Part shown: piece after piece, positions 5,469 to 52,796 of the stretch
Numbering within the stretch: the first letter of the stretch is position 1
How the letters are laid out: each line of letters opens with the position of its first letter
IMG/VR virus record: IMGVR_UViG_3300030116_007293
Location: 1-53,766 of that record
Reading direction: 5' to 3' (one strand)
DNA: 53,766 nucleotides
DNA from: a virus
Taxonomy: Duplodnaviria; Caudoviricetes
Position numbers and translations under genes: made by a program
Notes under the pieces: model-generated
Told to the model about the DNA's origin: nothing
Seen by the model: only the letters and a program-made list of their open reading frames with translations
The model's database searches: none

Positions 5469-7676
5469 TTAACCACAATATAATGCACATGGCACTGTAT
5501 AAGAACCATCACTATATGTTTCTTGTTTAATGTTTGTTAAAACTTTGCCAATAGTTTTACTACGAATTATATCATCATCTTGTTTCTTGGCTGTGCCATC
5601 ACCATTAGATGTTAATAAATCGCCTTTAGAAACTGTTTGGTCTTTGTGTATTCTTACTAAAGATGTCCCTAATGCATTAACATACATATCATTACAACAG
5701 TCATCATCATTGTCCCAATCCATAAATACACCATATACATTTGTACATTCGGCAGTATCTGATATTTTACATTTAACGTGTTTTACATCATCTGTTAAAC
5801 AAACTGTTGCATCATATTCTATACCATCTTCATCTTTATATTTAACTGTATCACCTACATTTACATTTGATGGTTTTTCATAATCTTTTTTAAGGTCAAA
5901 TTTTTCACGACTCACATCGCCAACTTTTTTATCTTTTGGTATATCATCACCATCTTGATATTTTAATTCAGGTTTGCTAAATTCTAAATGATACCAATCC
6001 ATCATCTCATCAATAGTTTCCATAACAGTACCACGCAGTATTGTTGGTTTGCTGTTGTCTGTTAATCGTGACCAGTGGCTTCCAGTAAATGCATTATATG
6101 ATGTCGTACTTCCACTGATTGATACCGAACCTTCAGCAGTTCCTGCTTGTTTAAATTGCACTATAGAACCATCTGAACCAGTTCTATTGCACTCTAAAAC
6201 AAACTGACCATTTACAGCAAGCACTGAGTCTTGTCCACCCAATACACAGCCTTGAGTTGAACTGCCGTCAGCAATATCTGCAGCTGTGGAGTCAATACTA
6301 GGTGAAGTTCCTACGTTAAATTTGGTTGCATGAAACTTATGTCTAGCAGTACCTGATAAAACAACTTCTATAGAACCACCAGATTGTTCTGCTGTTATTT
6401 GTGGTTGTCCACCACTTGTAACAGCTAATCCAATTCTTTTAGAACCACCACTAGATGTCTCTTCCAACATTAATTCTGGTGCTGCTTTTTTAATGTCTAG
6501 AGCATGTAATGGATTGCTATGTCCTATTCCAACATTACCTACATCACCACCAACTAAAAGTGCATTCGCATCACTTTCAGCTTCAACTCTAAAACTGCAG
6601 TTCCTTGCTTCTTCGTTAAACACCACTTCAGTAGGTTTAATAGAAAGCATCGTACGTTCTGTTCCTGCCACCATATTAAATATGTGGATAGTGCCATCTT
6701 CTGAACCATCAGAAGCATCAGCAATATCTGCTCTAATTTTTCCATAAATAACAAGTTGACTTGCATCATTATTGCCTTCAAATCTTATAGTACACATTGT
6801 GTCATCATCAGCAGGACTTGCTGAGTTTCTATAAAAACTTAATGCAGGACCACCACCAGCATCTGCATCTGTAGATATAAGTGTAAGATTATCTCCATTA
6901 TCACTTCTTGTTACATTTAAATTAGTATTTAAAAGTAATCCTGTATCATGCACATGAGTAAGTGTTACATCATTATCTGCACCAAAACCTAAAATTGCAC
7001 CATCACTATCAAGTTTTAAATCATGACTGACCAGCACAGCAGTTGAAGCATTTAAATCAATAGTTGCCTCACCATCTATTGTTAACACACCATCTGAACT
7101 TTGATGTATAAAACTGGCTGCATCACCAAATGTTAATTTATTTGTAGAGTTTAAAGTGAGACCTGTTCCATCTGTATGAGTCAAAGTTGTATCAGTATCA
7201 GCACCAAAACCTAAAACTGCTGAATCAGACTTTAAAGTTAAATCATTTCCGATTTTTAAAGATGTCCCGAAAAAACTTGCCACAGCAGCACCTGAACCAG
7301 CACCATCTGCATAAATAATATCGGCAGCACCATTAGCAATAGTTGCATTTGCACCTGTTCCCTGACTAAACTGTACTTCTTGGCCAGAGTTGTTAACAAC
7401 AAAATATAATTTATCTTGTGTGTTATCACTAATAGTTATTGTGTTTGTTCCTGATGGTGAGCCACCGAGAACCAATACTCTGAACATACCATCAGTCAAA
7501 GAGCCATCTGTTGTTGTAAGTGTATGCGACGTTCCTGTTAAAGTTATCGCACCAACACCACTTAATGCTCTGTCTATTATGTCAAAGTTTGTGTTGGTTG
7601 TATTACCCCAAGTTCCCGATTGTTCACCAGTCCCTATTTTTTCAATGCCTGTATTGAGTGTGTATGTACTCGCCAT
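5469..7676 (-). CDS. Tail fibre / receptor-binding protein with C-terminal intramolecular-chaperone-like domain
   Basis: 735 aa Gly/Thr/Ser-rich; duplicated LGFGADxDxTLTH segment; C-terminal FTGSH...GDLLTSNGDG...TIGKV. Confidence 0.85.
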   Translation of the reverse strand: MASTYTLNTGIEKIGTGEQSGTWGNTTNTNFDIIDRALSGVGAITLTGTSHTLTTTDGSLTDGMFRVLVLGGSPSGTNTITISDNTQDKLYFVVNNSGQEVQFSQGTGANATIANGAADIIYADGAGSGAAVASFFGTSLKIGNDLTLKSDSAVLGFGADTDTTLTHTDGTGLTLNSTNKLTFGDAASFIHQSSDGVLTIDGEATIDLNASTAVLVSHDLKLDSDGAILGFGADNDVTLTHVHDTGLLLNTNLNVTRSDNGDNLTLISTDADAGGGPALSFYRNSASPADDDTMCTIRFEGNNDASQLVIYGKIRADIADASDGSEDGTIHIFNMVAGTERTMLSIKPTEVVFNEEARNCSFRVEAESDANALLVGGDVGNVGIGHSNPLHALDIKKAAPELMLEETSSGGSKRIGLAVTSGGQPQITAEQSGGSIEVVLSGTARHKFHATKFNVGTSPSIDSTAADIADGSSTQGCVLGGQDSVLAVNGQFVLECNRTGSDGSIVQFKQAGTAEGSVSISGSTTSYNAFTGSHWSRLTDNSKPTILRGTVMETIDEMMDWYHLEFSKPELKYQDGDDIPKDKKVGDVSREKFDLKKDYEKPSNVNVGDTVKYKDEDGIEYDATVCLTDDVKHVKCKISDTAECTNVYGVFMDWDNDDDCCNDMYVNALGTSLVRIHKDQTVSKGDLLTSNGDGTAKKQDDDIIRSKTIGKVLTNIKQETYSDGSYTVPCALYCG

Positions 7677-7677
7677 A

Positions 7678-8094
7678 TCAATCTATCCTTATAATAGCTG
7701 TTGAACCTGCAGCTGGAAAAACTATTTTAAATGTTCCTCCTGCAACAGTAAAGTCTCCTCCAAAATTTAAAACAGCTATCGCTTTGTTACTGTTTGAACT
7801 ATTATATATTAAAGCACCTCTCGCAGTAAAGCTCGCAGATGTCCATGTTGGATCATCAGCATCAAAATGTGCTGTTGTTCCTGTTGTTGAGACTGCTGTT
7901 GATGTTAAAGTTACACCTGTCGCTGTATAACCAGTTCCACTGACTTCATTTGAACTAGAGTATGCAGTTGTTGTTGCATCTAATGATGCAGAGCTAGTGT
8001 AAAGAGCTATTTTTATTGTGTCAGTTGCAAGTTGATGTCCTTCTTGTAGAACCTCAGATTTGAAACTGGTGCACATTGCTTGTGTTATTGCCAT
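7678..8094 (-). CDS. Virion structural protein (138 aa)
   Basis: KIALYTSSASL...GY..G...FTARGALIYN pattern of tail-associated proteins; position. Confidence 0.7.
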   Translation of the reverse strand: MAITQAMCTSFKSEVLQEGHQLATDTIKIALYTSSASLDATTTAYSSSNEVSGTGYTATGVTLTSTAVSTTGTTAHFDADDPTWTSASFTARGALIYNSSNSNKAIAVLNFGGDFTVAGGTFKIVFPAAGSTAIIRID

Positions 8095-8718
8095 TTAGAT
8101 ACCTCCATCATATTCGGCTGTATAGTTGCGACCCATCTCTTGTTGAAATAATGCAATTGCTTCATCAAATTGGTCTTTATATAGTTTTACTGTTTCTCCT
8201 GCTTTAAGGAAAGCAGAACTTTCATAAAGTGCTGCAGAGAGTAAAACATTCTCTGCAAATGTTCCGACCCAACTGTTAGCATTCCCTGAAGAAAGTCCTG
8301 TCTCAGGAGCAATAAAATCAACTTGAAATGCTAATGTTGCACTTGGTGTCGGTGCTAATGTTATAACAATTCCCCCTGTTCCAGAGTCTTTTGTGCTATA
8401 CATTATTGGTGTTCCAGTTGTACTGGAATTTGGATGAAAGTCTCTTAAATAAGAATCTATCTTATGATTTAAAAAACTCACATTACTGCTAGATGTTACT
8501 GAAACTTGTCTTATCATTCTCGCTGTTGCCACTGTATAATCTGCTGTTCCTATGACTAAATTGCCTGTGCTTTGTTGTCTGAAACATGGTAAATTAGGCA
8601 GTCTTTGAAAAATCATGCTTTCAGCTTGTGTTATTATTGTTGGGATAGAATTAGACAACTCTGTGCTATCATCTTCTAAAAAATTTTGTATATTAGAAAC
8701 TAATTCTGTATAATTCAT
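8095..8718 (-). CDS. Head-tail adaptor-like protein
   Basis: MNYTELVSNIQNFL...AESMI...LAPTP...LLSAAL adaptor-like pattern. Confidence 0.6.
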   Translation of the reverse strand: MNYTELVSNIQNFLEDDSTELSNSIPTIITQAESMIFQRLPNLPCFRQQSTGNLVIGTADYTVATARMIRQVSVTSSSNVSFLNHKIDSYLRDFHPNSSTTGTPIMYSTKDSGTGGIVITLAPTPSATLAFQVDFIAPETGLSSGNANSWVGTFAENVLLSAALYESSAFLKAGETVKLYKDQFDEAIALFQQEMGRNYTAEYDGGI

Positions 8719-9645
8719 TTATTCACCCCATGCACCAGTGTTCCAAGCACCTGTTCCCCATTCAGGATCAACTATTACACTAACACTTCCTATAGCACCT
8801 GTTCCAGCGACACCTGATTCAGTAATAGATGCTTCAACAACTTCTGTTCCTGTGTTACCTGTTCCAGCAACACCTGATTCAGTAATAGATGCTTCTAGAG
8901 TCTCTGTTCCTATTGCTCCTGTTCCAGCGACACCTGATTCAGTAATAGATGCTTCTGGGATTTCTGTTCCTATTGCTCCTGTTCCTGCAACACCTGTCTC
9001 TGTTATAGATGCTTCTAGAGTCTCTGTTCCTATTGCTCCTGTTCCTGCAACACCTGATTCAGTAATAGATGCTTCTGGGACTTCTGTTCCTATTGCTCCT
9101 GTTCCAGCAACACCTGTTTCAGCAATCCTTAACTCAAATGATTCTACACCAACAGCACCTGTTCCGCCAATACCTGAAACACCAATAAGTCCTAAAACAG
9201 ATGCATCTCCTACATTACCTGTTCCAGCAACACCTGTTTCATCGATTGATGCTTCTGGAGTTTCTGTTCCTATAGCACCTGTTCCAGCTATTCCTGAAAT
9301 ACTGGTATTTTCAATTTCAAAAGAAGGAAAACCAACACTGCCTTTGCCAACTGGTAAATTTGGTTTTTTGTATTGTGTTGCCTGCATACCAGTTGGTGCA
9401 TTATTAAACCAATTAAAATTAAAAAATATAGAAACATTTTCAGGATCATTATTTGGTCTAGGATCAAATAATGCAGTTGGATCTATTATATTTTTTGGTG
9501 GTGTTAAACGAGGATGCTTAACCTCAAACTCTTCAGGCTCAACACGTAAATTGTTCCAAGTTGTTTTGAGTTGAGTATATGGAACTTCAAAACCACTTCT
9601 GTCGCTTATCGCTCTTGATCTTTTACCTTTTGCAAATCTTCCCAT
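8719..9645 (-). CDS. Structural protein with nine 20-aa repeats
   Basis: N-domain AISDRSGF...KHP, then EASITESGVAGTGAIGTE repeats and a WGTGAWNTGAWG end. Confidence 0.8.
   Translation of the reverse strand: MGRFAKGKRSRAISDRSGFEVPYTQLKTTWNNLRVEPEEFEVKHPRLTPPKNIIDPTALFDPRPNNDPENVSIFFNFNWFNNAPTGMQATQYKKPNLPVGKGSVGFPSFEIENTSISGIAGTGAIGTETPEASIDETGVAGTGNVGDASVLGLIGVSGIGGTGAVGVESFELRIAETGVAGTGAIGTEVPEASITESGVAGTGAIGTETLEASITETGVAGTGAIGTEIPEASITESGVAGTGAIGTETLEASITESGVAGTGNTGTEVVEASITESGVAGTGAIGSVSVIVDPEWGTGAWNTGAWGE
8781..9310. repeat. Intragenic 60-bp tandem repeat, 9 copies
   Basis: gttcc (in cctgttcc) recurs at 8801, 8861 ... 9281 with an exact 60-nt period. Confidence 0.95.
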
Positions 9646-10343
9646 TATATCAAGTTCAATGCTGTTGGTTGTATTTTTAAACTTACACCATCATTATCGC
9701 TAGATGCTGCAAAATTAAATGCTCTTTCATACATTTCATTTAATAGTTGAAATTTGTCAGGAGCATATTTAACTGCTAATTTGCTTGCTAAACCTGCACA
9801 GATGCACTCACTCCAAGTATATGGAATGTCTGTATCTTGGTTTGATGCTGTTATATCTTCAAGTTGGTTCATTGCCCAATAACTGAGAACATAAGTATTT
9901 ATGTCTGGTGCTTGCCAAACATATATTTTAGAAATATTATTAGATCCAGATTGTAAACCTTTATCAAGCATATATTGGCTTGGCTTACCAGATGAGCTTT
10001 TATTTGGTATTTGATTATATTCTTGCAATGTTATTCTATTTACAATAGTGTCGTTGCGAGTTGAGTCTGCTGAATTAAATATAACAACATCTAACAAATC
10101 AATTACACCTGCTGGCAAATTATATGTTATGGTATCTGTTGATAAATTTAATGTTGCAGTGCCAACTGTCCAATAGTTTATCCCTCTGTTTGCCCACTCT
10201 GAGAATAATAAATTTAAACTTCTTCTTGCAGATGTGGCATGGTGACCTGTCCTTGTTTGAGGATCGATACCACATCTCTCATATGATTCAGAAATTATTT
10301 CTTCAACAGTTGGTCTAAATGCTGTTGTCCCAGAAGTCGCCAT
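9645..10343 (-). CDS. Adaptor / tail tubular protein A-like
   Basis: MATSGT..F...EEII.ESYERCG...ARRSLNLLFSEWAN pattern; position after capsid genes. Confidence 0.65.
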   Translation of the reverse strand: MATSGTTAFRPTVEEIISESYERCGIDPQTRTGHHATSARRSLNLLFSEWANRGINYWTVGTATLNLSTDTITYNLPAGVIDLLDVVIFNSADSTRNDTIVNRITLQEYNQIPNKSSSGKPSQYMLDKGLQSGSNNISKIYVWQAPDINTYVLSYWAMNQLEDITASNQDTDIPYTWSECICAGLASKLAVKYAPDKFQLLNEMYERAFNFAASSDNDGVSLKIQPTALNLI

Positions 10344-14878: not shown

Positions 14879-15283
14879 TTATAGATATGCAGTCACTTCA
14901 ACTCCTTCAGGCAAGATAGAAGTTATCTCGTCATCGTTGAGTAAAAGAAACCGAACACCATTTATTACTAATTTTTGACCAGCATATTTACCATATGTGA
15001 CTCTGTCTGATATTTTAGGAATTATTTCTTGTTTCCACTTTTGACCAGTGTTTCTGTCACGATATGCTAATTCACCAATGCCAGCAACTGTGCCATGAGC
15101 AGTTAAATATGCCTCATTGTCTTTGGCTTGAGATGGTAATAATATGCCACCTTTAGTTTGCTGTTTGATTTGATTTGGTTGAACTAGAATTTTCCATCCC
15201 ATAGGTATTGGGAGATCTTTTGCTGCTACGACTGATTTAGACTCTTCGTCGGTATAGAGTTTTTCTACATGCTGATGAGACAT
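14879..15283 (-). CDS. groES: Co-chaperonin GroES-like
   Basis: PMGWKILV, TKGGILLP mobile loop, KYAG, LLNDDEI. Confidence 0.9.
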   Translation of the reverse strand: MSHQHVEKLYTDEESKSVVAAKDLPIPMGWKILVQPNQIKQQTKGGILLPSQAKDNEAYLTAHGTVAGIGELAYRDRNTGQKWKQEIIPKISDRVTYGKYAGQKLVINGVRFLLLNDDEITSILPEGVEVTAYL

Positions 15284-17464: not shown

Positions 17465-18115
17465 TTAATCACCTTTTTGTAAAGACATGTTTGCTGAAAA
17501 AGATCTTCTTTCACCTTCGCCATAGAATGGATATACTGTATGGAATAAAAATGCTGGGAATATATAAAGATCTCCAACCTTTGGCTGTACACACATATTT
17601 CCTGGACAAACAGTTGTAGATGAACCAAACACAAAATCAATATAACCTTCAGTGGCATATTTTTCGTGAGTGTTTCTAGAATTTTTATCTGATATTCCTG
17701 GAGGGATCTTTAAATATAATACACATGAAAAAGAACCATTGGTATGAATATGTGTTGGATTATAATCATTTTCGAATGAACGAACAAACCAAGAATGGTG
17801 TATTGCTATTTTTTCTGCTTGTTCTATTTTTTCCTGTTCACCTCTTTCAACGAGAAAGTTTGTGTATAATGCTTTTGTTGCACTATATAAAAAATTACCA
17901 AAACCTTCAGATTTTTCTAAATCGCACCTTAACTCTTCAAATACATGACCAACCAAATCGTCAGACGCATCTCTTTCTTTTCTTTCCTCATCGTTTTTTA
18001 ATAACTCATCGCATTGAGTATTTAACGCATCTATCATATTTTGAGGAACTTTTGCCTTTAATATCCTTGGACCAAATGGTCTTAATATATCAACTTCTAT
18101 TTCTTGTTTTGTCAA
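17465..18115 (-). CDS. 2OG-Fe(II) oxygenase
   Basis: YNPTHIH, FSCVLYL, FPAFLFHTVYP, RRSFSAN. Confidence 0.85.
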   Translation of the reverse strand: MTKQEIEVDILRPFGPRILKAKVPQNMIDALNTQCDELLKNDEERKERDASDDLVGHVFEELRCDLEKSEGFGNFLYSATKALYTNFLVERGEQEKIEQAEKIAIHHSWFVRSFENDYNPTHIHTNGSFSCVLYLKIPPGISDKNSRNTHEKYATEGYIDFVFGSSTTVCPGNMCVQPKVGDLYIFPAFLFHTVYPFYGEGERRSFSANMSLQKGD

Positions 18116-29418: not shown

Positions 29419-29805
29419 ATGCCAAAAGTATATGTTGTTAATAGACCAGTGAAGAATAAATTTGGTTGGACACCAGATTTAACTGATGCCACTCGTTATG
29501 GAACGATTGAAGTTATATTTGAACCAAATGAAAAGCCACAGTTTCTTCCTGGACCATCTATCCAAAAGGCAAAAAGAATATTAAAGAACTTCAGTCCAGA
29601 CGATTATTTGCTCTGGCCAGGAGGAGGAGACCCAATAGCTGTTATGATCACTTGTATGATAGCATCTGAAATGTCTCCAACAGTCCGTGTTCTCAGATGG
29701 GAACGCAATGTAGAAGAAGGTGAGAGGGATCGACGCAAAGGTTGGTACATGCCTGTCGCCTTGGAACTCAGAAAGGTGAAAGAAAATGAGTATAAATCTG
29801 CTTGA
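29419..29805 (+). CDS. Hypothetical protein, first gene of the replication arm
   Basis: KVYVV...YG...DYLL..GDP...LRW; GAAAGGA RBS. Confidence 0.8.
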   Translation: MPKVYVVNRPVKNKFGWTPDLTDATRYGTIEVIFEPNEKPQFLPGPSIQKAKRILKNFSPDDYLLWPGGGDPIAVMITCMIASEMSPTVRVLRWERNVEEGERDRRKGWYMPVALELRKVKENEYKSA

Positions 29806-30370
29806 TGACGTGGCACCTGCGTCAAATGAATTAGGTGCAATTGCAGATATGGCTCAACAGATGTATGATTTACAAACTGAAATTATACAAGCTGAAGAAT
29901 CATTGAAGCGAAAAAAGCAGGATCTTACGAAGTTGGCTGAACAGTCCTTGCCTGATTTAATGCAAGAACTGAATATCAAAGACTTTACTTTAAACAATGG
30001 TGCGAAGATTAAAGTTGAAGATATTGTCTCTGCTTCTATACCTAGTGCTGGCTCTATTGAAAGAGCAAAAGGCACAGAACGTATAGAATTGCAAGTCCGA
30101 CAGGATCAATGTTTTGATTGGTTGCGTGCTAATAATGGTGGTGACTTAATTAAAAATAATGTTGAAGTTCAATTTGGTCGTGCAGAAGATAATGAATGTG
30201 ATCAGTTTGCAAAAGAGCTGAGAGATCGCAAAATTTTCTACAAACGAGCAACTGGAGTTCATCCTGCACAATTGACAGCATACATAAAAGAAATGTTGTC
30301 TGAAGGGAAATCAATCCCACACGATCTGTTTAAAATTTATACAGGTCGCAGAGCCAAGATAAGGAGATAA
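29786..30370 (+). CDS. Replication-module hypothetical protein
   Basis: Coiled coil, LPDLMQELNI..FTL.NG, FDWLR..GDLIKN, VHP..L. Confidence 0.8.
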   Translation: MSINLLDDVAPASNELGAIADMAQQMYDLQTEIIQAEESLKRKKQDLTKLAEQSLPDLMQELNIKDFTLNNGAKIKVEDIVSASIPSAGSIERAKGTERIELQVRQDQCFDWLRANNGGDLIKNNVEVQFGRAEDNECDQFAKELRDRKIFYKRATGVHPAQLTAYIKEMLSEGKSIPHDLFKIYTGRRAKIRR

Positions 30371-30374
30371 AATT

Positions 30375-31163
30375 ATGGCCAATGAAATAAAGAAAAAAGT
30401 AGAGAGCAATGTAGTGGCTTTCGATAAATCTATATTACTACAGGATGCAGGATCAGCATCTGAAAATATGTCACAAGATGACATTATGATTCCTCGCTTG
30501 AATATACTTCAAGCACAATCACCAAAAGCAATGAAAGCAGATCCTGCTTATATCAAAGGTGCTGAAGCAGGATATATTCTTGACACAGTATCCAATGATG
30601 TCATTGATGGTGAAAAAGGTATTACTGTGGTGCCAATTAGTTATCGCAGAACACATCTAGAATGGAAACCAGACAGAGGTGGTTTGGTAAAAGATCATGG
30701 CAATGATCCTTTTATTTTAACAACTTGTAAACAAAATGAGTTGGGAAAATATTTTAATGATGTTGGCAATGAAGTTGTGCCAACTGCAGAATATATGGTT
30801 TATGTTATTGACGGAACTTTATATTCACCTGCGATGATATCAATGGCATCATCTCAATTACGCAAGGCAAAGCAATGGAACTCTATGATAAATAGATTAC
30901 AGATACCAAGACCAGATGGTGAGGGTGTTATGAATCCTGCTATGTTTTGGACTGCATATAAACTTACAACAGTGCCACAAAAGAATGACAATGGCACTTG
31001 GTTCGGTTGGAATATCGAAATACTCTTTGATGCCAAGTCAGGTGGCATTTTAGAAAAACTTCCAAATGGTCAGGATATATATCTTGCAGCAAGGAAGTTC
31101 AAGAGCAAGGTTACATCAGGTGAGGTTAATGTATCACCAGACGAACAAGATGATGTAATGTAG
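30375..31163 (+). CDS. Putative ssDNA-binding protein
   Basis: DIMIPRLNILQAQSP, aromatic GTWFGW strand, acidic C-tail; position before primase. Confidence 0.6.
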   Translation: MANEIKKKVESNVVAFDKSILLQDAGSASENMSQDDIMIPRLNILQAQSPKAMKADPAYIKGAEAGYILDTVSNDVIDGEKGITVVPISYRRTHLEWKPDRGGLVKDHGNDPFILTTCKQNELGKYFNDVGNEVVPTAEYMVYVIDGTLYSPAMISMASSQLRKAKQWNSMINRLQIPRPDGEGVMNPAMFWTAYKLTTVPQKNDNGTWFGWNIEILFDAKSGGILEKLPNGQDIYLAARKFKSKVTSGEVNVSPDEQDDVM

Positions 31164-35453: not shown

Positions 35454-35754
35454 AATATTATCTCTCCCATTGCTTATAGAAGTTGTAGACAGTGAATGGG
35501 ATAATTATGAAGTTGGCTCTTCATTTGTTATCGAGGAGCCATTTTCAGCACCAAACATAGATTTTACTAAATATCGAGATTCAAGAATATATTGGGATAC
35601 CAATAAGAAAGGAAAAAATAAATATGATAGTAATAGGAGCAGGGATGGCAGGTCTTCTAGCAGGGAATATGCTGAGAAGATTCAGACCATACATTTGGGA
35701 AGGAAAAGAAGATCTTCCAATAAATCACAGTGCATTGCTGAGGTTCAGAACTGA
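35437..35754 (+). CDS. Uncertain hypothetical ORF
   Basis: Fills the gap but overlaps the next gene by about 130 nt. Confidence 0.35.
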   Translation: MHQKDKILSLPLLIEVVDSEWDNYEVGSSFVIEEPFSAPNIDFTKYRDSRIYWDTNKKGKNKYDSNRSRDGRSSSREYAEKIQTIHLGRKRRSSNKSQCIAEVQN

Positions 35755-36571
35755 AAAAGTTGGTATTGCAACAGCCATACCATTTGAAAAAGTCAAAGTA
35801 AATAAAGCAATAAAATACGATGGCAAGCTGATAACTGAACCCAGTGTGTTTTTAAGTAATATGTATTCTGAAAAAGTAACAGGAGCAGTTTTGCCTCGAT
35901 CTATAGACAGCCTTGAAACTGTTGAAAGATATATTGCTCCAAATAATTTTGTTCATACTATGGCAACAAATTGTAATATAGCATTTAGAAAAAGATTTGA
36001 TTTTGATAATTGGATGAGCAAGCAATATAGAACACCATTAATATCTACAATACCAATGCCAGCACTTATGAAGATGGTTGGCTGGAAAGATATGCCAGAT
36101 TTTAATTTTCAAAACATTTGGACTCAAAAAGCAGTTATTGATGAACCAGAATGCAATGTTCATCAGACGATATATTATCCAGATCCAACTGTCCCATATT
36201 ACAGGATATCTATTATGGGGAATGTTATAATATCTGAATTTATTAAAGAGCCATCAGAATATATTGGTGGTCATTTATCAAATGTGCTCTATGAAGATTT
36301 TGGTTTCATGCCAAAAAAATTAATTGATCTAAAAGATTCAAAACAAGTTTATGGTAAAATAAAACCTATTGATGAAAATTTAAGAAAAGAATTCGTATTT
36401 GAAATGACAAACAAATACAAAATTTATTCTGTTGGTCGGTTCGCAACTTGGCGACAGTTATTATTGGATGATCTAATAAATGATTTAAAAATGATCGACA
36501 GTTTTATAACGAGTGATTCAAATTACTCAAGATTAATACACTCTCAGAAAGGAGAAAACAATGAAAGTTAA
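35624..36571 (+). CDS. FAD-dependent oxidoreductase (UDP-galactopyranose mutase / amine-oxidase-like fold)
   Basis: IVIGAGMAGL Rossmann motif, LISTIP, C-terminal IYSVGRFATW. Confidence 0.8.
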   Translation: MIVIGAGMAGLLAGNMLRRFRPYIWEGKEDLPINHSALLRFRTEKVGIATAIPFEKVKVNKAIKYDGKLITEPSVFLSNMYSEKVTGAVLPRSIDSLETVERYIAPNNFVHTMATNCNIAFRKRFDFDNWMSKQYRTPLISTIPMPALMKMVGWKDMPDFNFQNIWTQKAVIDEPECNVHQTIYYPDPTVPYYRISIMGNVIISEFIKEPSEYIGGHLSNVLYEDFGFMPKKLIDLKDSKQVYGKIKPIDENLRKEFVFEMTNKYKIYSVGRFATWRQLLLDDLINDLKMIDSFITSDSNYSRLIHSQKGENNES

Positions 36572-37208
36572 ATTAATATCTTGCACAGACGATGCAGTGG
36601 ACTTATTACTGTTCACAAAAAATACCAGACTCATGAATGATGAGGATGCTTTTAGTAAAATTAAAGAATGGGATGATGATAAAAAACAAGCAGAGCTTGA
36701 TTATATGCTTCAAACTATAAAATCATCCTGGGAATTTATTGATTATGTTTTTGATATAAGAGATGTAACAAGAGGATTTACACATCAGTTTGTAAGAACT
36801 CGTCAAGCATCTTATGCTCAACAATCTCAAAGGACTGTTGATATGCAGGGATTTAATTATTCAGTCCCAGAAAAAATAGCCAACGATGAAAAGGCAAAAT
36901 TAATTTATGACCAGACTATGGAATTAATTAATATGCGATACCAGCAATTAAGAGAGCTGGGTGTTCATGCTGAAGATGCTCGTGGAGTTCTGCCAACAAA
37001 TATCCATACAAATATTGTTGCAAAATTTAATTTAAGAACTTTGCATGAGATGGCAAAAAGCAGATTGAGTCCAAGAGCACAGGGTGAATATCGTGAGGTG
37101 TTTACATTAATGGTTGATGAAGTTGTAAAAAAGCACCCATGGGCAAAACCTTTTTTAACTCCAAAAGAATGGGCTGCACCATCTATGTATAAGGCATTAA
37201 ATAAATGA
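36561..37208 (+). CDS. thyX: ThyX-fold flavoenzyme, non-canonical active site
   Basis: HQFVRTRQASYAQQSQR, EDARGVLP, NLRTL...RL...AQGEYR. Confidence 0.85.
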   Translation: MKVKLISCTDDAVDLLLFTKNTRLMNDEDAFSKIKEWDDDKKQAELDYMLQTIKSSWEFIDYVFDIRDVTRGFTHQFVRTRQASYAQQSQRTVDMQGFNYSVPEKIANDEKAKLIYDQTMELINMRYQQLRELGVHAEDARGVLPTNIHTNIVAKFNLRTLHEMAKSRLSPRAQGEYREVFTLMVDEVVKKHPWAKPFLTPKEWAAPSMYKALNK

Positions 37209-37648
37209 AGAGGACAATCATATCAGATCTTGATGGCACAATATCTAATTATGAACATAGAGCTCATTTATATAATGATTTGCTTTACAGTGAATTCAAC
37301 AAAGCAGGAGCAGATGATCCACCAATAGAGAACATCTGCAATATCCTCAGAGCTTTGAAAGATGATGAAACTGAGATAATTATATTGACTGCCAGAGATG
37401 AATCATGTAGAGCCATGACTTTGAAATGGCTTGAATTAAACGATATTCCATGTGACCAGTTATACATGCGACCATTAAATGACACCACTAGTGACCATAT
37501 AACAAAGGAAAATTTATACAAAAACAATCTTTCTGACAGAAATGTATGGTTTGTGCTTGAGGATAGAGCTGTTTGTGTTAATATGTGGAGAGCATTAGGT
37601 TTGAGCTGTTTAGCAGTTAAGGAGATAAAAAATGTCCATAGAAGTTAA
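37205..37648 (+). CDS. HAD phosphatase, T4 PseT 3'-phosphatase-like
   Basis: DLDGT, LTAR, LYMRP..D...D...K, LEDR..CV.MWR.LG. Confidence 0.88.
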   Translation: MKRTIISDLDGTISNYEHRAHLYNDLLYSEFNKAGADDPPIENICNILRALKDDETEIIILTARDESCRAMTLKWLELNDIPCDQLYMRPLNDTTSDHITKENLYKNNLSDRNVWFVLEDRAVCVNMWRALGLSCLAVKEIKNVHRS

Positions 37649-37841
37649 GACCATGTATTTAAGAATTATAAATAATGACCTTGAACTTGATGGAGTAAAA
37701 GTTGCCAGAGTGCTTGACATAACAGGAACAGTGCTTGGCAACTTTGAAGAAATGATTGAGAGGGCAAATGATTATGAAAAAATTGCTGAACAAGAATATG
37801 AAAAAGGATATGAAAAAGGGAGAGAAGATGCCGAAGTTTAA
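37632..37841 (+). CDS. Small hypothetical protein
   Basis: AAGGAG RBS; C-terminal YEKGYEKG. Confidence 0.65.
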   Translation: MSIEVKTMYLRIINNDLELDGVKVARVLDITGTVLGNFEEMIERANDYEKIAEQEYEKGYEKGREDAEV

Positions 37842-38154
37842 ATATAAAATTCTTGATAAATCAGGGAAAGATGCAGCCAAAATTTTAGAAGAGATGGCAG
37901 AAACTTTTCGTGAGAGAAATAAAGTTTATGGTGATAATTATAAAACAGTTGGTGAGGTGATGGTTGGTTTATTCCCCAAAGGCATTCACCTTAAAACAGC
38001 TGATGATTATAATATATGGCATCTTTTTGAACTCATGATAGTCAAAATAACAAGATTTGCTAACAGCGATTTAAACCACAAAGACTCAATACATGATGCA
38101 GCAGTTTATGCAGCAATGGTTGAATCATTATTAATAAAAGGAAATAAAAAATGA
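37828..38154 (+). CDS. All-alpha DUF6378-like protein, possible nucleotide pyrophosphohydrolase
   Basis: RNKVYGD...MIVKITR...HKDSIHDAAVYAA; start reassigned to 37828. Confidence 0.6.
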   Translation: MPKFKYKILDKSGKDAAKILEEMAETFRERNKVYGDNYKTVGEVMVGLFPKGIHLKTADDYNIWHLFELMIVKITRFANSDLNHKDSIHDAAVYAAMVESLLIKGNKK

Positions 38155-38822
38155 GTAATATTTTAATTACAGGGTCAGGCAAAGGTCTTGGCAAAGCTAT
38201 GAAAGATGAGCTAGAAAAACAAGGTCATAACATTCTCGGATATGATATAAATGATGGCAATGATGTGACCAAAGCAAAAATTTTTGGTTCTATAAATATT
38301 GATGTATTAATAAATAATGCAGGAGTGAATTTAATAGATTGGCTTGAAAACTTCACAGAAGATATGTGGGATAAAGTTATGGATGTAAATGCAAAAGGCA
38401 TATACATGATGTCTAGAGCATGCTTGCCATCATTGATTAAGAACAGAGGAACAATATTAAACATTGTCAGCAATGCTGCTCACATGCCAATGACTTGTTC
38501 TTTGGCTTACAATGCATCAAAAGGTGCTGCTCATATAATGACTTTGCAAATGGCTCGTGAACTAACAAGAAAGCATGGCATTACAGTTTTTGGTATAGCA
38601 CCAAACAAATTATCAGGCACTGGTATGAGCAAATCAATAGATGAACAAGTTGTTAAAACTCGTGGTTGGGCAAATGATTATGCTCGACAATATCAATTAG
38701 ATGGATTGTTAACAGGTGAAGAAACACCACCCCAAAGATTAGCAGAGTTCATTGCATATTTATTACAATCAAAAGAGCATCACAAATATTTAACAGGATG
38801 CATATTACCATATGGAGCTTAA
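38151..38822 (+). CDS. Short-chain dehydrogenase/reductase
   Basis: TGSGKGLG, NNAG, NIVS, YNASK. Confidence 0.92.
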   Translation: MSNILITGSGKGLGKAMKDELEKQGHNILGYDINDGNDVTKAKIFGSINIDVLINNAGVNLIDWLENFTEDMWDKVMDVNAKGIYMMSRACLPSLIKNRGTILNIVSNAAHMPMTCSLAYNASKGAAHIMTLQMARELTRKHGITVFGIAPNKLSGTGMSKSIDEQVVKTRGWANDYARQYQLDGLLTGEETPPQRLAEFIAYLLQSKEHHKYLTGCILPYGA

Positions 38823-38823
38823 T

Positions 38824-39300
38824 ATGAAATTTACTATTGAACAAATCGCTATTTGCCCAGAGAACCCAGTTAAGGCAAAAAAGTTGTTATCTGAAATAGG
38901 TGCAGTGGATTGGGTTGAGGATCATGTTGTTGCGACTGGTGCAGTTTTTGATGTTGTTGGAACAAATGAGGCAGACTTATCTTTCAATTATGATATCTTC
39001 TCTGGTAAAGAGTTTGAGATTTTAAATTATACTGAAGGCAATAACTGGATGGATACAGATAAAAGAGGAAGAAACTCTGTAAGTCATCTTGGTATGCACT
39101 GCACAAATACTGAACTTGCTCTGTGGAAAACATTTTTTGAGGAAAGAAATATAGGTATCGCACAAGAAGTTTTTACAGACTCTCATACAAATGTTGCAAT
39201 AGCAGGCAAAAGATCTTACAACTATGTTATTTTTGATACCAAAGATATATTGGGTGTTGATTTAAAATTTATTGTCAGGATAGATAATGATAATATTTGA
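38824..39300 (+). CDS. VOC / glyoxalase-fold protein (methylmalonyl-CoA-epimerase-like)
   Basis: IEQIAI, EFEILNY, SHLGMH, FDT..ILG pattern. Confidence 0.7.
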   Translation: MKFTIEQIAICPENPVKAKKLLSEIGAVDWVEDHVVATGAVFDVVGTNEADLSFNYDIFSGKEFEILNYTEGNNWMDTDKRGRNSVSHLGMHCTNTELALWKTFFEERNIGIAQEVFTDSHTNVAIAGKRSYNYVIFDTKDILGVDLKFIVRIDNDNI

Positions 39301-39820
39301 TCTTGAGACAACAGGATTGCCAAAAGCTGAAGGCAGTGATTTAGAAATGCAGCCAAAGATAATTGAATTTGGTGGTATTAAAGTTGATGATGACTTTAAT
39401 AAAATAGACAGCTTTGAGTTTTTGTGTAATCCTGGACACCCATTAGATCCAAAAATAATAAAGATAACAAAAATAACAGATGAGATGTTAAAAGATCAAA
39501 AACCTTTTATTGCTCATTATAAAAAACTTGCTGAATGGTTTTGTGGTCAGAGTTCAATTGCAGCACACAATCTATCTTTTGACAGACAGATATTAAAATT
39601 TGAATTAGAAAGAATAGATAAATTAACAAAGTTCCCATGGCCATATAATCATATTTGCACAGTTGAGATAGGTCAATCAGTTTGGGGAAAGATGAGGAAG
39701 CTGGGTGATATATATGAAGACTTGTTTAATAAAAAGATTCAAGGTGCTCACAGATCTTTGGTTGATGTTGAAGCAACAATAGAAATATTGAGGTGGTACA
39801 GAAAAGAAGGACACATATAA
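39287..39820 (+). CDS. dnaQ: DEDDh 3'-5' exonuclease (Pol III epsilon-like)
   Basis: FDLETTG, AHNLSFD, AHRSLVDV. Confidence 0.92.
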   Translation: MIIFDLETTGLPKAEGSDLEMQPKIIEFGGIKVDDDFNKIDSFEFLCNPGHPLDPKIIKITKITDEMLKDQKPFIAHYKKLAEWFCGQSSIAAHNLSFDRQILKFELERIDKLTKFPWPYNHICTVEIGQSVWGKMRKLGDIYEDLFNKKIQGAHRSLVDVEATIEILRWYRKEGHI

Positions 39821-39883: not shown

Positions 39884-42697
39884 ATGCTAAATATTAGATT
39901 AAGAACTGAATATTCATTTCGCAAAGCATTTGGTCATACCAAAAAAGTTGTTGAAGCATCTGCAGGTGAAGCAGTTGGTATATGTGATGCTGGCACTTGG
40001 GGTCATGTTGCTTTTGATAAGGCATGTAAAGAATTAAATAAAAAACCATTGTTTGGTACTGAAATATCATTTGTTGAAGATTCAACTGCAAGAGAAAAGC
40101 AACCAGCAAATCAAATGGCTTTTATTGCAAAGAGCAATAAAGGATTAAAAGAACTTTATGAGCTTGTAACAAAAAGCACAGAAAAAGAAAATTTTTATTA
40201 CTTCCCCAGACTTTCATATTCTGACCTGTTTGATATATCAGATGAATTAATCATATTGAGTGGAACACATCCTGCATGGGGAATGCTTCCTTTGGCCAGA
40301 AAAAACAATTTATATATTGAGATCAATCCTATGAGTTCTCGCAAGGCATTAGACTTTTGTGAAGCAAAAGGATTTAAATGCATATCAACATCTGATAATT
40401 ATTTTCCAAAAGTTGATGACAGAAAAGGTTATGAAGTTCTTGTTGGCCAGAATAGGATTAACAGAACAGCACCAATGCATATATTAAATGAGTGGGAGTT
40501 GAAAGATTTAGTTCCTTGGATTCCAGATTCAGCTTTTAAAAATAGCTATGAAATAGCTGATATGTGCAATGTTGAATTACCACAAGGATCAATGGTATCA
40601 TTTCATTCTGAAAAAACTTTAGAAAAACTTTGTATTGAAGGTGCTGTAAAAAGAGAAGTAAATTTAAAAGACCCAATATATAAAGCAAGATTAAAAAGAG
40701 AGATTGATTTAATAGCTGATAAAAAGTTTGAAGATTATTTTTTTGTAATAGCAGATATGATTAATTTTGCCAAGCAACATATGTTAGTTGGACCAGCAAG
40801 AGGATCTTCAGCAGGATCATTGGTTTGTTATTTAACAGGGATAACTGACATCGATCCAATAAAACATGATTTATTGTTTGAAAGATTTATTGATATAACT
40901 CGTGAAGATTTACCTGATATCGATATTGACTTTCAAGATGATAGAAGAGAGATGGTTATAAATTATTTGAGAGATAAATATGGTGAGGAAAAAGTTGCAC
41001 ATTTAGGAACAATATCAAGATACAAAGCAAAGAGCACAATAACAGAAGTTGCCAAAGAACTTGGTGTTCCTGCTTGGGAAGTTAATGATCTCAAAGGTGC
41101 AATAATAGAAAGAAGCTCTGGGGATGCTCGTGCAGCCATGTGTATAATGGACACATTTAATGACCTCGAAATTGGGAAAAAAGTTCTGGAAAAGTATCCA
41201 CAGATGAGAATAGCATCAAAAATGGAGAATCATGCTCGTCACAATGGTGTTCATGCAGCCGCAATAATTGTGACTGAAGACCCAGTAAGAAAATATTGTT
41301 CAGTAAATCAACAATCAGGTGCAGCACAGATTGATAAGATAGATGCTGAGAGCTTAAATTTACTGAAGATTGATGCTTTGGGATTAAGAACTTTGTCTGT
41401 TTTACAAGATATACTTGACCAAGTTGGTTGGCAAAGAGAAGAATTAATAAATTATAGACTAGATGATAAAGATGCTTTTGATGTTTTAAATAAAGAAAAA
41501 TATGCAGGAATATTTCAGTTTGAAGGTTATGCTTTGCAATCATTAACAAGGCAAATGCAAATATATGATTTTGAAGATATCGCATCGATAACTGCTCTGG
41601 CTCGTCCTGGACCATTAACTTCAGGTGGGACAACACAATATATTCAAAGAAGAGTTGGTTCTTCACCAATAGAATATCTTCACCCAATGACTGAAGAAGT
41701 TACAAAAGTCACAAAAGGTGTTGTTGTTTATCAGGAACAGGTTATGAATATTGCTCGTGATGTTGGCAAGTTAAGTTGGGAAGATGTATCTCAACTTCGC
41801 AAAGCAATGAGCAAAAGTTATGGTGAAGAATTTTTTGACAGGTATTGGCAAAGGTTTAAAGTTGGTGCTGAAGAAAATAATATCGATGAAGAACAAGCAT
41901 TAAAAATATGGAAAAATATTAATACAATGGGATCTTGGGCATTTAATCGTAGTCACGCAATATCTTATGGACTTGTGAGTTATTGGTGCTGTGTTTTAAA
42001 AAGTAAATTTCCATTAGAATTTGCAGCTGCATGTTTGAGAAATGTTAAGGATGATGAACAAGGAGTAAAACTTTTAAGAGAAGTTGTAAGAGAGGGTCTT
42101 GTATATAAGCCATATGATAAATACAAATCAACAAGTAATTGGTCAGTTCAAGATGGCCAGTTGATAGGTGGATTGATTGGTATAAAAGGTGTTGGTCCAA
42201 AAATGTCTGAAGATATAATAAATAGAAGAGAGCTGAATCAACCATTAACACCAAGACAAAATAATCTTTTAGACAATGGGGAAACACCATATGATGATAT
42301 TTTTGAGTGTGAAAGAAGGTTTGGTCATATTAAAAAAGAACCAGCAAAACATAATATAAAAACAGCCATAACAGATATACAAAATCTTGAAGCTGACAAT
42401 CCTGGAGAGTTTGTTGTTTTTGGAAAGCTCATTGAAAAGAATTTAAGAGATTTAAATGAAACAGTAAACTTGGCAAAAAGAGGTGGTCGTAGAGCAGAGA
42501 CTAATAACTTATGGTTGAACATGAAATTTGAAGATGACACTGGTCCAATTTTAGCAGGCATCAATAGATGGGCATATCCAAAGTTGGGCAAACCAATAGT
42601 TGAGGAGGGTAAAATTGGTGATTGGTATCTATTAAAAGGCAAAATAAATAAAGGATTTAGAAAATTAAATGTAGAGAAATGGCGTAAGCTGACATAA
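39884..42697 (+). CDS. dnaE: DNA polymerase III alpha subunit (family C)
   Basis: PHP-like N-domain, GPARGSSAGS, FERF, PDIDIDF, HAAA, KIDALGL, FQF, YQEQ, FNRSH, HhH, OB fold. Confidence 0.97.
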   Translation: MLNIRLRTEYSFRKAFGHTKKVVEASAGEAVGICDAGTWGHVAFDKACKELNKKPLFGTEISFVEDSTAREKQPANQMAFIAKSNKGLKELYELVTKSTEKENFYYFPRLSYSDLFDISDELIILSGTHPAWGMLPLARKNNLYIEINPMSSRKALDFCEAKGFKCISTSDNYFPKVDDRKGYEVLVGQNRINRTAPMHILNEWELKDLVPWIPDSAFKNSYEIADMCNVELPQGSMVSFHSEKTLEKLCIEGAVKREVNLKDPIYKARLKREIDLIADKKFEDYFFVIADMINFAKQHMLVGPARGSSAGSLVCYLTGITDIDPIKHDLLFERFIDITREDLPDIDIDFQDDRREMVINYLRDKYGEEKVAHLGTISRYKAKSTITEVAKELGVPAWEVNDLKGAIIERSSGDARAAMCIMDTFNDLEIGKKVLEKYPQMRIASKMENHARHNGVHAAAIIVTEDPVRKYCSVNQQSGAAQIDKIDAESLNLLKIDALGLRTLSVLQDILDQVGWQREELINYRLDDKDAFDVLNKEKYAGIFQFEGYALQSLTRQMQIYDFEDIASITALARPGPLTSGGTTQYIQRRVGSSPIEYLHPMTEEVTKVTKGVVVYQEQVMNIARDVGKLSWEDVSQLRKAMSKSYGEEFFDRYWQRFKVGAEENNIDEEQALKIWKNINTMGSWAFNRSHAISYGLVSYWCCVLKSKFPLEFAAACLRNVKDDEQGVKLLREVVREGLVYKPYDKYKSTSNWSVQDGQLIGGLIGIKGVGPKMSEDIINRRELNQPLTPRQNNLLDNGETPYDDIFECERRFGHIKKEPAKHNIKTAITDIQNLEADNPGEFVVFGKLIEKNLRDLNETVNLAKRGGRRAETNNLWLNMKFEDDTGPILAGINRWAYPKLGKPIVEEGKIGDWYLLKGKINKGFRKLNVEKWRKLT

Positions 42698-52355: not shown

Positions 52356-52796
52356 TTATTTCTCCACATATACAGATCCAGCTTTTTTAAAACCCAATCT
52401 CTCAAAAAATTTATCTTTGCGTTCAATATCACCAGAAAACACATGACCGAGCCTTACAGACATTTTAACTGATTTTGCAAAATTTACAAAGTTTTTTACC
52501 AACATTAAAGCTGACCTGCTTTTTCTATAATTTTTAGAAACAAAAAACCAAAGATCAGATAAATGCTTTTCATCACTCCACCAATCATTTGCATAGATGC
52601 CACCTATTGATCCTGTTATAAATCCTTCATTATTGTAAGTCACAAACACTATACCATTCTTAATAACATTATCTACTTTTCTGGCCAAACATTCTAGTTT
52701 TATATTAGGGATATTTATTACTGTTCCTTCATGCATTTCTTTTAATAAAAGTAATATTATGAAGGCATCATCTAAATTTGCCCTGCGAATGTTCAT
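52356..52796 (-). CDS. GNAT-fold acyltransferase
   Basis: IRRA, FFVSKNYRKS, FFERLGF. Confidence 0.8.
   Translation of the reverse strand: MNIRRANLDDAFIILLLLKEMHEGTVINIPNIKLECLARKVDNVIKNGIVFVTYNNEGFITGSIGGIYANDWWSDEKHLSDLWFFVSKNYRKSRSALMLVKNFVNFAKSVKMSVRLGHVFSGDIERKDKFFERLGFKKAGSVYVEK

Follow-up and report, generated by a model that had tools for sequence, protein, structure and literature searches.

Among the closest described systems are phage copies of thymidylate synthase that have taken on a new function. Single active-site changes mark these neofunctionalised homologues of ThyA (PMC13326640, cited here from excerpts), and the known cases, comprising the dCMP hydroxymethylase of T4, the dUMP hydroxymethylases of phages with hypermodified thymidine and the flavin-using 5-hydroxy-dCMP synthase of RB69 and DLP3, use an altered active site to make a new C5 product that seeds hypermodification (PMC13326640; PMC8989533, likewise from excerpts). 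A ThyA-type dUMP hydroxymethylase also starts the 5-hydroxymethyl-deoxyuridine (5-hmdU) pathways of phages M6, ViI, SP10 and PhiW-14, 5-hmdU being a known entry point of thymidine hypermodification in phages (PMC8989533). In these phages, as in members of Pbunavirus, part of the thymidine carries a bulky C5 adduct that blocks restriction (PMC8989533; PMC12191111, from excerpts). We found no such example in ThyX, a family unrelated to the ThyA fold. Here, we analysed a 53,766-base virus record from IMG/VR (IMGVR_UViG_3300030116_007293, judged 98% complete; "the window" hereafter means this whole stretch), in which an open reading frame (ORF) at 36561-37208 on the plus strand encodes a ThyX-family protein of 215 aa (P0001). 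It belongs to a variant clade whose changed active site may have turned ThyX into a counterpart of the phage ThyA cases, and whose product we can describe only by analogy with them.

Canonical ThyX, as known from Thermotoga maritima (TM0449, PDB 1O26/4GT9), contacts dUMP through Arg78, Arg80, Ser88 and Arg90 (PMC3498832), and Arg174 polarises the uracil (PMC8316439). The conserved His53 has two stacking partners, the folate pteridine when the ternary complex is formed and the reduced isoalloxazine once the enzyme is reduced. Tyr91 and Asn85 hydrogen-bond to the His53 imidazole and keep it in place, and an "OFF" state of the flavin is stabilised by the contact between His53 and Tyr91 (PMC11940539). 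Tyr91 and Ser88 have been called strictly conserved and were proposed to be the acids that aid water loss from the flavin carbinolamine (PMC8316439). Tyr91 mutants are 100- to 1000-fold slower (PMC11940539, PMC8316439; both sources are cited from excerpts).

Judged by its profile matches, the ORF is a clear member of the Thy1/ThyX family: it scored 136.1 bits against Pfam Thy1 (PF02511; cut-off 24.8), covering profile positions 2-191 of 191, and 100.7 bits against the NCBIfam model TIGR02170 thyX (cut-off 87.9). A first-pass annotation made from the sequence of the window had reported a ThyX homologue with altered motifs, and translation confirmed them as T52-I53-K54-S55-S56-W57-E58-F59, R79-T80-R81 and S89-Q90-R91-T92. 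Residues were paired with T. maritima ThyX by HMMER alignment to its PDB chains, among them the H53A and H53D mutants, with native numbering taken as the chain number minus 12. On the changed side, this paired His51 with T52, His53 with I53, Phe57 with W57, His59 with F59, His79 with T80, Asn85 with A86, Tyr91 with T92 and His178 with R172. Thus, the residue whose stacking on folate the annotation had pointed to, and whose role is stated in PMC11940539, is Ile53 in the window. On the other side, Glu58, Arg78, Arg80, Ser88, Arg90, Arg147 (in the "EDAR" stretch), Arg174, Gln180 and Glu182 are identical in the window as E58, R79, R81, S89, R91, R141, R168, Q174 and E176, in agreement with the annotation's list of retained residues (Ser89, Arg91, EDAR and the R..AQ.E region). 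All dUMP contacts and the uracil-polarising arginine are therefore matched (R79, R81, S89, R91, R168), whereas the ThyX motif RHRX7S (Myllykallio 2002, as quoted in PMC2826268, itself cited from excerpts) reads R79-T80-R81-X7-S89 and fails by one mismatch.

These changes are shared by a large group of relatives. Searching 1.84 billion cluster representatives at E <= 0.001 yielded 3828 matches, of which the best 150 representatives at 50% identity were used; residues were counted in the 141 that have a residue in all five tested columns. At position 53, 135 of them have no His (I 111, V 13, L 8, N 2, S 1, against H 6). Position 57 is mostly Trp (W 108, F 13, L 13, other 7) and position 59 almost always Phe (F 132, H 5, M 3, K 1), while position 80 is more mixed (T 91, H 28, S 9, N 7, other 6), as is position 92 (V 59, T 25, I 16, A 15, L 8, Y 7, other 11). 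Only the six weakest matches among the 141 are canonical (SGHxSxxEH, RHR or RKR, SQRY). Tyr92 is absent from 134/141 relatives, including 134 of the 135 that lack His53. As the same changes are conserved across a large clade, they amount to more than chance, and the conservation of Trp57 (108/141) and Phe59 (132/141) shows that the replacements are under selection. The annotation had treated all of the altered motifs as lost signature residues. For His53 together with Tyr91 this holds as a tight pair, whereas RHR to RTR is the least diagnostic change and the loosest marker, because 23 of the 135 proteins without His53 keep RHR and one canonical representative reads RKR. The His53-Tyr91(-Asn85) arrangement is a functional unit of the T. 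maritima enzyme, and the clade has lost it as a group.

Canonical proteins do not carry the same residues. The cellular comparison (65 rows) comprised two large groups, with a Thy1 match in 101/151 genomes of one alphaproteobacterial class and 67/81 genomes of one cyanobacterial-type phylum, and a few stragglers; the matches from one Bacillota-type phylum (5/121 genomes), mostly divergent or tandem, were kept in the counts. All 30 alphaproteobacterial ThyX loci (30/30) read H-x-H-[TS]-TPFEM, RHR and S[AG]RY. Across the cellular rows, position 80 is His in 63/65 and position 92 Tyr in 63/65, the exceptions being two rows of one tandem-domain protein. The His53 equivalent is kept in every single-domain row with an aligned segment shown; it was read from the segment strings, since MAFFT had gapped query residues 52-55, and column counts were not used there. 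Canonical residues were also found in 5/5 aligned ThyX proteins from phages outside the clade (Bacillus S4-4, Desulfovibrio 7757, Clostridium phiCP26F, halovirus HCTV-1 and Gordonia GordDuk1), a count that leaves out Mycobacteriophage Hawkeye, in which the motif region did not align. The clade residues at positions 80 or 92 thus occur in 0/65 cellular rows and 0/5 of these phage proteins, so the substitutions are not common in bona fide ThyX enzymes, a possibility that the annotation had named as fatal to its idea.

In a maximum-likelihood tree, all 117 full-length variants fell on one side of a single branch, together with 0/53 canonical or cellular sequences (Shimodaira-Hasegawa-like support 0.86); the sequences of the Bacillota-type sample, most of which were divergent or tandem, and one truncated sequence were excluded. 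By this tree, the variants form one clade. Inteins interrupt the ThyX domain of two metagenomic members (P0191, P0207), at a point after about residue 76-100. A fusion of ThyX to its partner flavoprotein (described below) was not seen among 14 long representatives, whose extra parts are inteins, a weak GIY-YIG match or unannotated sequence. Separately, a 600-aa tandem-domain ThyX, the first domain of which lacks the canonical motifs (FGDDSVAQL, ERGR), is encoded in a Dehalococcoidia metagenome-assembled genome (MAG; contig C27, about 240.2-241.6 kb); it is the ThyX of the organism itself, distinct from the phage-type variant found on a 45.6-kb contig of the same MAG.

The residues expected to hold the cofactor and the nucleotide are maintained. 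In an alignment of 50 clade sequences, 37-55% identical to the query, R79, R81, R141, R159, R168 and E58 are invariant, and Q76, S84 and R91, as well as Ala86, are at least 90% conserved; in the larger set of representatives, Ser89 is relaxed (S 83, T 35, A 26). This pattern favours the suggestion of the first-pass annotation that binding of FAD and of a pyrimidine nucleotide is probably retained. The resulting picture is that of a live flavoenzyme which would still grip FAD and dUMP, with an altered flavin face towards the donor or reductant, where canonical ThyX takes up CH2-THF and NADPH. Decay into a pseudogene was rejected on account of the intact frame, the tight gene packing and the conserved clade. 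One could still imagine a catalytically dead relic, retained for a structural or regulatory role in, say, a complex for nucleotide synthesis or replication, as residues described as critical for activity (in the excerpted sources above) are lost and the gene travels with replicase genes. We find this very hard to credit, since invariant substrate- and cofactor-binding arginines at 37-55% identity are not expected of a non-catalytic scaffold and the new Trp57 and Phe59 are themselves conserved.

The clade appears to be confined to phages. A scan of one genome per species across 185,579 prokaryotic species found it at 10 loci, each on a MAG contig (1.6-47.6 kb) with the same phage genes, and in no isolate genome; the scan used two peptide patterns derived from 10 sequences, so that more divergent cellular members may have been missed. 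It looks, on this sampling, as if cells do not use the variant, whereas canonical thyX often moves between phages and cells (PMC2826268). Marine metagenomes, Tara samples among them, are rich in close relatives (1427 proteins at E <= 1e-5, the best 120 of which are 75-100% identical). Among cultured phages, the closest relatives (38-53% identity) are encoded by Vibrio phages VA-RY-3 and PVA7, Ralstonia phage PY059YO380, Cronobacter phage Ss1, Rhizobium RHph phages, Serratia MyoSmar-like phages, Wifcevirus of E. coli and Shigella, and Pseudomonas Pbunavirus (292 records). All of these homologues are annotated as "thymidylate synthase" or as hypothetical. No ThyA homologue (PF00303) was found in the window (0/1) or in Rhizobium phage RHph_Y65, phiKTN6 (Pbunavirus), WFC (Wifcevirus) and VA-RY-3 (0/4), and none of these five genomes has a second Thy1 gene. 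In this respect, they differ from the 5-hmdU phages mentioned above, whose pathways begin with a ThyA-type enzyme.

A second feature distinguishes the variant from canonical ThyX, namely a conserved partner gene that the first-pass annotation had missed. The ORF immediately upstream (35624-36571, plus strand) encodes an uncharacterised flavoprotein of 315 aa (P0272), recognised by its GxGxxG motif and its AlphaFold2 (AF2) model; the last 11 nt of this ORF are shared with the start of the ThyX ORF. The N-terminus reads IVIGAGMAGLLAG, with GAGMAG at residues 5-10, and a conserved GRFATWR..LLDD block lies at the C-terminus. The sequence matched no Pfam (GLF and NAD_binding_8 included) and no NCBIfam family; it falls into phrog_4828, "unknown function" (3.6e-67). 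Of its 1589 homologues, the 120 listed are all named hypothetical and show no Pfam domain, and no relative was found among PDB sequences. The AF2 model, built from 14 sequences, is predicted with good confidence (pLDDT 85.3, predicted TM-score (pTM) 0.81). In Foldseek searches with the model, UDP-galactopyranose mutases ranked top (E 1.4e-10, TMq 0.65, 10-14% identity, the best match 12%), followed at similar scores by renalase, protoporphyrinogen oxidase and other two-domain flavoproteins; the matched chains are longer than the protein by about 60-190 residues. Its neighbours in a protein atlas are NAD_binding_8/Amino_oxidase proteins. The predicted fold class is therefore clear and resembles that of UDP-galactopyranose mutase, with which it shares the GxGxxG motif, but given the low identity and the lack of a Pfam GLF or amine-oxidase match, the fold does not assign a function.

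Upstream of the variant ThyX, and no more than 3 kb away, a homologue of the flavoprotein is encoded in 4/4 cultured phages, 7/7 MAG contigs and 65/65 IMG/VR loci with enough upstream DNA, 50 of the latter having been counted automatically and 15 on inspection (an over-long call of the ThyX ORF had hidden the overlap). The IMG/VR loci, being close relatives, do not count as independent; divergence is seen in the cultured phages and MAG contigs, with 28-43% identity in the flavoprotein. In the phage collection, 362 records contain the flavoprotein, and the numbers for Pseudomonas (292) and Escherichia (27) equal those of the ThyX search. None of the groups with canonical ThyX (actinophages, haloviruses, Bacillus phages) is found among its ten commonest organism names. 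The flavoprotein is a truly conserved partner of the variant ThyX. Moreover, an all-against-all comparison revealed only four window genes with homologues in all of phiKTN6, WFC and VA-RY-3, comprising these two and the genes of the DnaQ-like exonuclease and the DNA polymerase III alpha-type replicase.

Two genera that carry the pair are of particular relevance. Yee et al. (bioRxiv 2025, PMC12191111) reported that DNA of Pbunavirus F8 resists five enzymes with TG-containing sites and is cut by five without, and that in F8 and 14-1 novel thymidine-derived nucleosides (362 and 390 Da, respectively) replace about a quarter of the thymidine. The authors read these as a tetrose sugar-alcohol derivative and a cyclised aldopentose derivative; the excerpts describe pbunaviruses as lacking genes previously tied to hypermodification, and name no biosynthetic gene (PMC12191111). 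The words "ThyX" and "thymidylate" do not occur in the available text of this study, nor in that of two later Pbunavirus papers, and in the literature we found no link between the variant clade or its flavoprotein and DNA modification, and no assignment of a Pbunavirus gene to it. Both F8 and 14-1 encode the flavoprotein (ORF65), a variant ThyX (ORF59, with TIRSPFEF, RTR and TSRA) and a fusion of two proteins that are separate in the window, HAD-DUF6378 (ORF57). Wifceviruses resist restriction. The EcoP1_I site, AGACC, has no TG on either strand.

Comparing F8 with 14-1, ORF56, ORF59, ORF65, ORF66 and ORF67 are 94-99% identical and the small ORF58 and ORF60-63 78-89%. The fusion protein ORF57 (8722-9786 in the F8 locus, 8713-9729 in the 14-1 locus) is 80.8% identical and differs in an AEDAAEDAA-type linker repeat. 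The two phages carry different thymidine adducts (PMC12191111).

We propose that the variant ThyX is a neofunctionalised pyrimidine-C5 enzyme feeding thymidine hypermodification; this is our leading explanation, held at about even odds. Published data lend plausibility to a product other than dTMP, namely the thymidine hypermodification of Pbunavirus (PMC12191111) and the direct reaction of ThyX-bound FADH- with formaldehyde (PMC8316439). Under this proposal, we infer that the enzyme no longer makes only dTMP; its product, its donor and the role of the partner are suggested in the same spirit. The variant would catalyse the first committed step towards a C5-modified thymidine at the mononucleotide level. 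It would reuse the chemistry of ThyX, in which a carbon electrophile on N5 of the reduced flavin is attacked by the polarised C5 of dUMP, with a different outcome; the homotetrameric fold and the C5 activation of canonical ThyX are presumably retained. In a conservative version, the folate methylene would still pass via flavin N5, and the exocyclic methylene would be hydrated rather than reduced, giving 5-hmdUMP. In a bolder version, a larger aldehyde would take the place of the one-carbon unit. The partner flavoprotein might deliver reducing equivalents, regenerate them or act on the donor; the HAD phosphatase encoded downstream might trim a phosphate or deplete dTMP, and a dehydrogenase and a 162-aa protein further downstream could act as lineage-specific tailoring enzymes. 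With respect to the first-pass annotation, a ThyX that keeps nucleotide and flavin with its other face changed is now backed by comparative and published data, while its non-folate donor fed by neighbouring enzymes stays speculative.

Several of these observations would also fit an ordinary dTMP synthase of a divergent phage lineage, the main rival explanation, to which we assign a substantial minority of our belief. Here, Trp57, Phe59 and Ile53 would form an alternative pocket for folate and NAD(P)H, the flavoprotein would be a dedicated NAD(P)H:flavin reductase and hypermodification would be due to other genes. The protein exceeds the curated cut-offs of Pfam Thy1 and TIGR02170, the latter an NCBI equivalog model; the dUMP-contacting arginines and the FAD-contacting Glu58, Asn157 and Arg159 are all conserved; and it is the only member of a thymidylate synthase family in the window and in 4/4 cultured relatives, which as sequence evidence suits plain dTMP synthesis equally well. 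In Rhizobium phage RHph_Y65, the variant ThyX lies near dUTPase and ribonucleotide reductase, an ordinary setting for dTMP supply, and about three quarters of the Pbunavirus thymidine is canonical (PMC12191111). Among the best structural matches of the modelled partner are structures solved with a nicotinamide cofactor, UDP-galactopyranose mutase with NADH or NADPH and renalase with NADH, as could be expected of a nicotinamide-dependent flavin reductase. Nor is the loss of His53 proof of lost folate use, because Trp57, conserved in place of Phe57, could stack on the pterin. These points count against neofunctionalisation, as do the following. Phage replication modules can keep their gene order even where the genes are not functionally coupled, and the link of the module to the Pbunavirus and Wifcevirus phenotypes is only a correlation, both genera sharing many other genes with each other. 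The window phage is uncultured, and no modification data were found for its nearest cultured relatives (Vibrio VA-RY-3, Cronobacter Ss1, and the Ralstonia and Rhizobium phages). Finally, the TG context and the replacement of about a quarter of the thymidine demand a sequence-specific step at the DNA level, beyond a mononucleotide enzyme, and no such enzyme was identified in the gene set common to the window, phiKTN6, WFC and VA-RY-3. This TG-reading step is the main gap, which neither version of the mechanism supplies. Pfam and PHROG scans of the window likewise named no 5-hmdU kinase or transferase, dedicated models not having been run.

What speaks against a plain dTMP synthase is the nature of the lost residues. 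Tyr91 mutants of the T. maritima enzyme are severely slowed, as quoted above, yet 134/135 members without His53 have no Tyr at this position. Although canonical thyX moves often (PMC2826268), the clade residues at positions 80 and 92 were seen in 0/65 cellular rows and the clade was not found in the isolate genomes scanned. Besides, canonical ThyX needs no partner protein, whereas the variant is accompanied by the flavoprotein at every locus counted.

A more specific form of the neofunctionalisation proposal, which we consider unlikely, is that the variant ThyX, working as a flavin-dependent C-alkylase, joins C5 of dUMP directly to an aldose. In UDP-galactopyranose mutase, N5 of the reduced flavin attacks C1 of galactose. 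The FADH- bound to T. maritima ThyX reacts directly with formaldehyde (PMC8316439). By analogy, the Trp/Phe/Ile pocket would hold a sugar or sugar phosphate instead of folate, its aldehyde would form an adduct with flavin N5, the flavin would depart as C5 of dUMP attacks the sugar carbon, and the resulting alkylidene would be reduced or closed by a sugar hydroxyl. The masses of both nucleosides fit this scheme exactly (dU + aldopentose + 2H - H2O = 362.3 for F8; dU + aldohexose - H2O = 390.3 for 14-1), but cannot decide the matter alone, because these sums are isomeric with ether and glycoside forms of 5-hmdU. The TG-context specificity argues against a purely pre-replicative route and is left unexplained by direct alkylation.

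It is also conceivable that the changed face reflects another substrate rather than another donor. PolB of polyoxin biosynthesis is a ThyX-like UMP methylase, and the variant might similarly alkylate C5 of dCMP, UMP or CMP, with the loss of Tyr91, which lies near the sugar and phosphate, marking a changed nucleotide. The Ser88/Tyr91 loop has changed most (Ser89 is S/T/A and position 92 V/T/I/A within the clade), and phage ThyA homologues have repeatedly switched to dCMP (PMC13326640). We nevertheless judge this decidedly improbable: Arg168, the equivalent of the uracil-polarising Arg174, is invariant, Gln76 is at least 90% conserved, and the modification known from clade-bearing phages is on thymidine, not cytidine (PMC12191111).

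In phage therapy against P. aeruginosa, pbunaviruses belong to the most widely used phages, and the two-flavoenzyme pair common to Pbunavirus, Wifcevirus and abundant marine phages offers a testable candidate for a hypermodification pathway. If neofunctionalisation is correct, the variant would be the first ThyX recruited to DNA modification, in parallel to the many ThyA cases; the signature TIxS[SP][WF]EF, the missing Tyr after SxR and the flavoprotein upstream would predict modified genomes in viromes, and hundreds of "thymidylate synthase" database entries would need re-annotation. Should the variant couple an aldose directly, it would represent a new type of reaction in the ThyX family and a C-C-linked sugar-nucleobase in DNA. 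If, instead, the protein does not feed hypermodification, the clade constitutes a natural experiment on how ThyX works without residues held to be critical.

The genes downstream of the variant ThyX are less constant than its upstream partner. The first (37205-37648, plus strand) encodes a HAD-superfamily phosphatase of the PNKP phosphatase-domain type (147 aa; Pfam HAD_PNKP, 5.9e-27), whose start overlaps the ThyX stop by 4 nt; it is found downstream of ThyX in 46/46 close relatives and 3/5 MAG contigs. The next (37756-38154, plus strand) encodes a DUF6378-like helical protein, with 21.9 bits to Pfam DUF6378 (under its cut-off of 27.1) and a match to phrog_4889 (2.4e-32). The listed start is TTG and the true start is uncertain, the conserved core being at about 37834-38151. 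The DUF6378 domain occurs in 5/5 MAG contigs, and the phosphatase and DUF6378 follow ThyX in most loci, including 46/46 close relatives. The AF2 model of the DUF6378-like protein shows four helices (pLDDT 87.4); Foldseek gave nothing at E <= 0.001, VIA-align returned just generic helical bundles (best Z 8.1) and the DUF6378 profile found nothing below E 0.6 among PDB sequences. A guess that DUF6378 is a MazG-like pyrophosphatase was not supported by the profile, Foldseek or VIA-align searches. In Pbunavirus and Wifcevirus, the phosphatase and DUF6378 are fused (phiKTN6 gp57, WFC_00067); in the window, accordingly, the protein may be split or its start may have been miscalled. Between the phosphatase and the DUF6378 core lie a 69-aa ORF (37632-37841, plus strand) and a Lys-rich N-terminal extension.

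The following two genes seem to be accessory. A short-chain dehydrogenase/reductase (SDR) of 223 aa (38151-38822, plus strand; Pfam adh_short, 5e-34; all NCBIfam matches far under their cut-offs) is present in 6/46 close relatives, 1/5 MAG contigs and 1/4 cultured phages. The supply of an aldehyde by neighbouring enzymes, as suggested in the first-pass annotation, would lean on this gene, which is not the conserved neighbour. Next to it, a 162-aa protein (38812-39300, plus strand) has no Pfam, PHROG or NCBIfam match; the sole lead is a weak PDB sequence match to a glyoxalase-family protein (E 0.071), and it occurs in 6/46 close relatives, 0/5 MAG contigs and 1/4 cultured phages. It is 52-59% identical to WFC_00065, and the SDR is 48% identical to its Wifcevirus WFC homologue. 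Together, the two (38151-39300 in the window, plus strand; 7743-9074 in the WFC locus) look like a mobile accessory pair. In Vibrio phage VA-RY-3, the place of HAD phosphatase, DUF6378 and SDR between ThyX and DnaQ is taken by a 222-aa protein with a weak DUF3310 match and a 251-aa sulfotransferase-like protein (Sulfotransfer_3, 5.8e-07), at 7369-8124 of that locus.

The cluster is part of a replication block on the plus strand (29.4-43.8 kb) that comprises an AEP-type primase, a UvrD-like helicase, the ThyX cluster, the DnaQ-like exonuclease, the replicase and lysis genes, whereas the terminase, portal, head and tail genes are on the minus strand. The DnaQ-like 3'-5' exonuclease (39287-39820; Pfam RNase_T, 1.5e-28) and the DNA polymerase III alpha-type replicase (39884-42697; Pfam DNA_pol3_alpha, 3.1e-71), both on the plus strand, are the two further genes common to phiKTN6, WFC and VA-RY-3. 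At the beginning of the block (29419-31163, plus strand), three genes match Pam3 gp32, gp33 and gp34-like families, and homologues of the gp33- and gp34-like genes adjoin helicase genes in Pbunavirus and Wifcevirus. Amid the structural genes, the window also encodes a 2-oxoglutarate (2OG)-Fe(II) oxygenase (17465-18115, minus strand; Pfam 2OG-FeII_Oxy_5, 3.4e-19; phrog_81), which at E 1e-4 is without a homologue in phiKTN6, WFC or VA-RY-3. Members of this superfamily carry out base hydroxylation in some phages. The structural and late regions further contain a GroES-like co-chaperonin (14879-15283, minus strand; phrog_3188, 1e-12) and an acetyltransferase (52356-52796, minus strand; phrog_1249, 6.9e-18).

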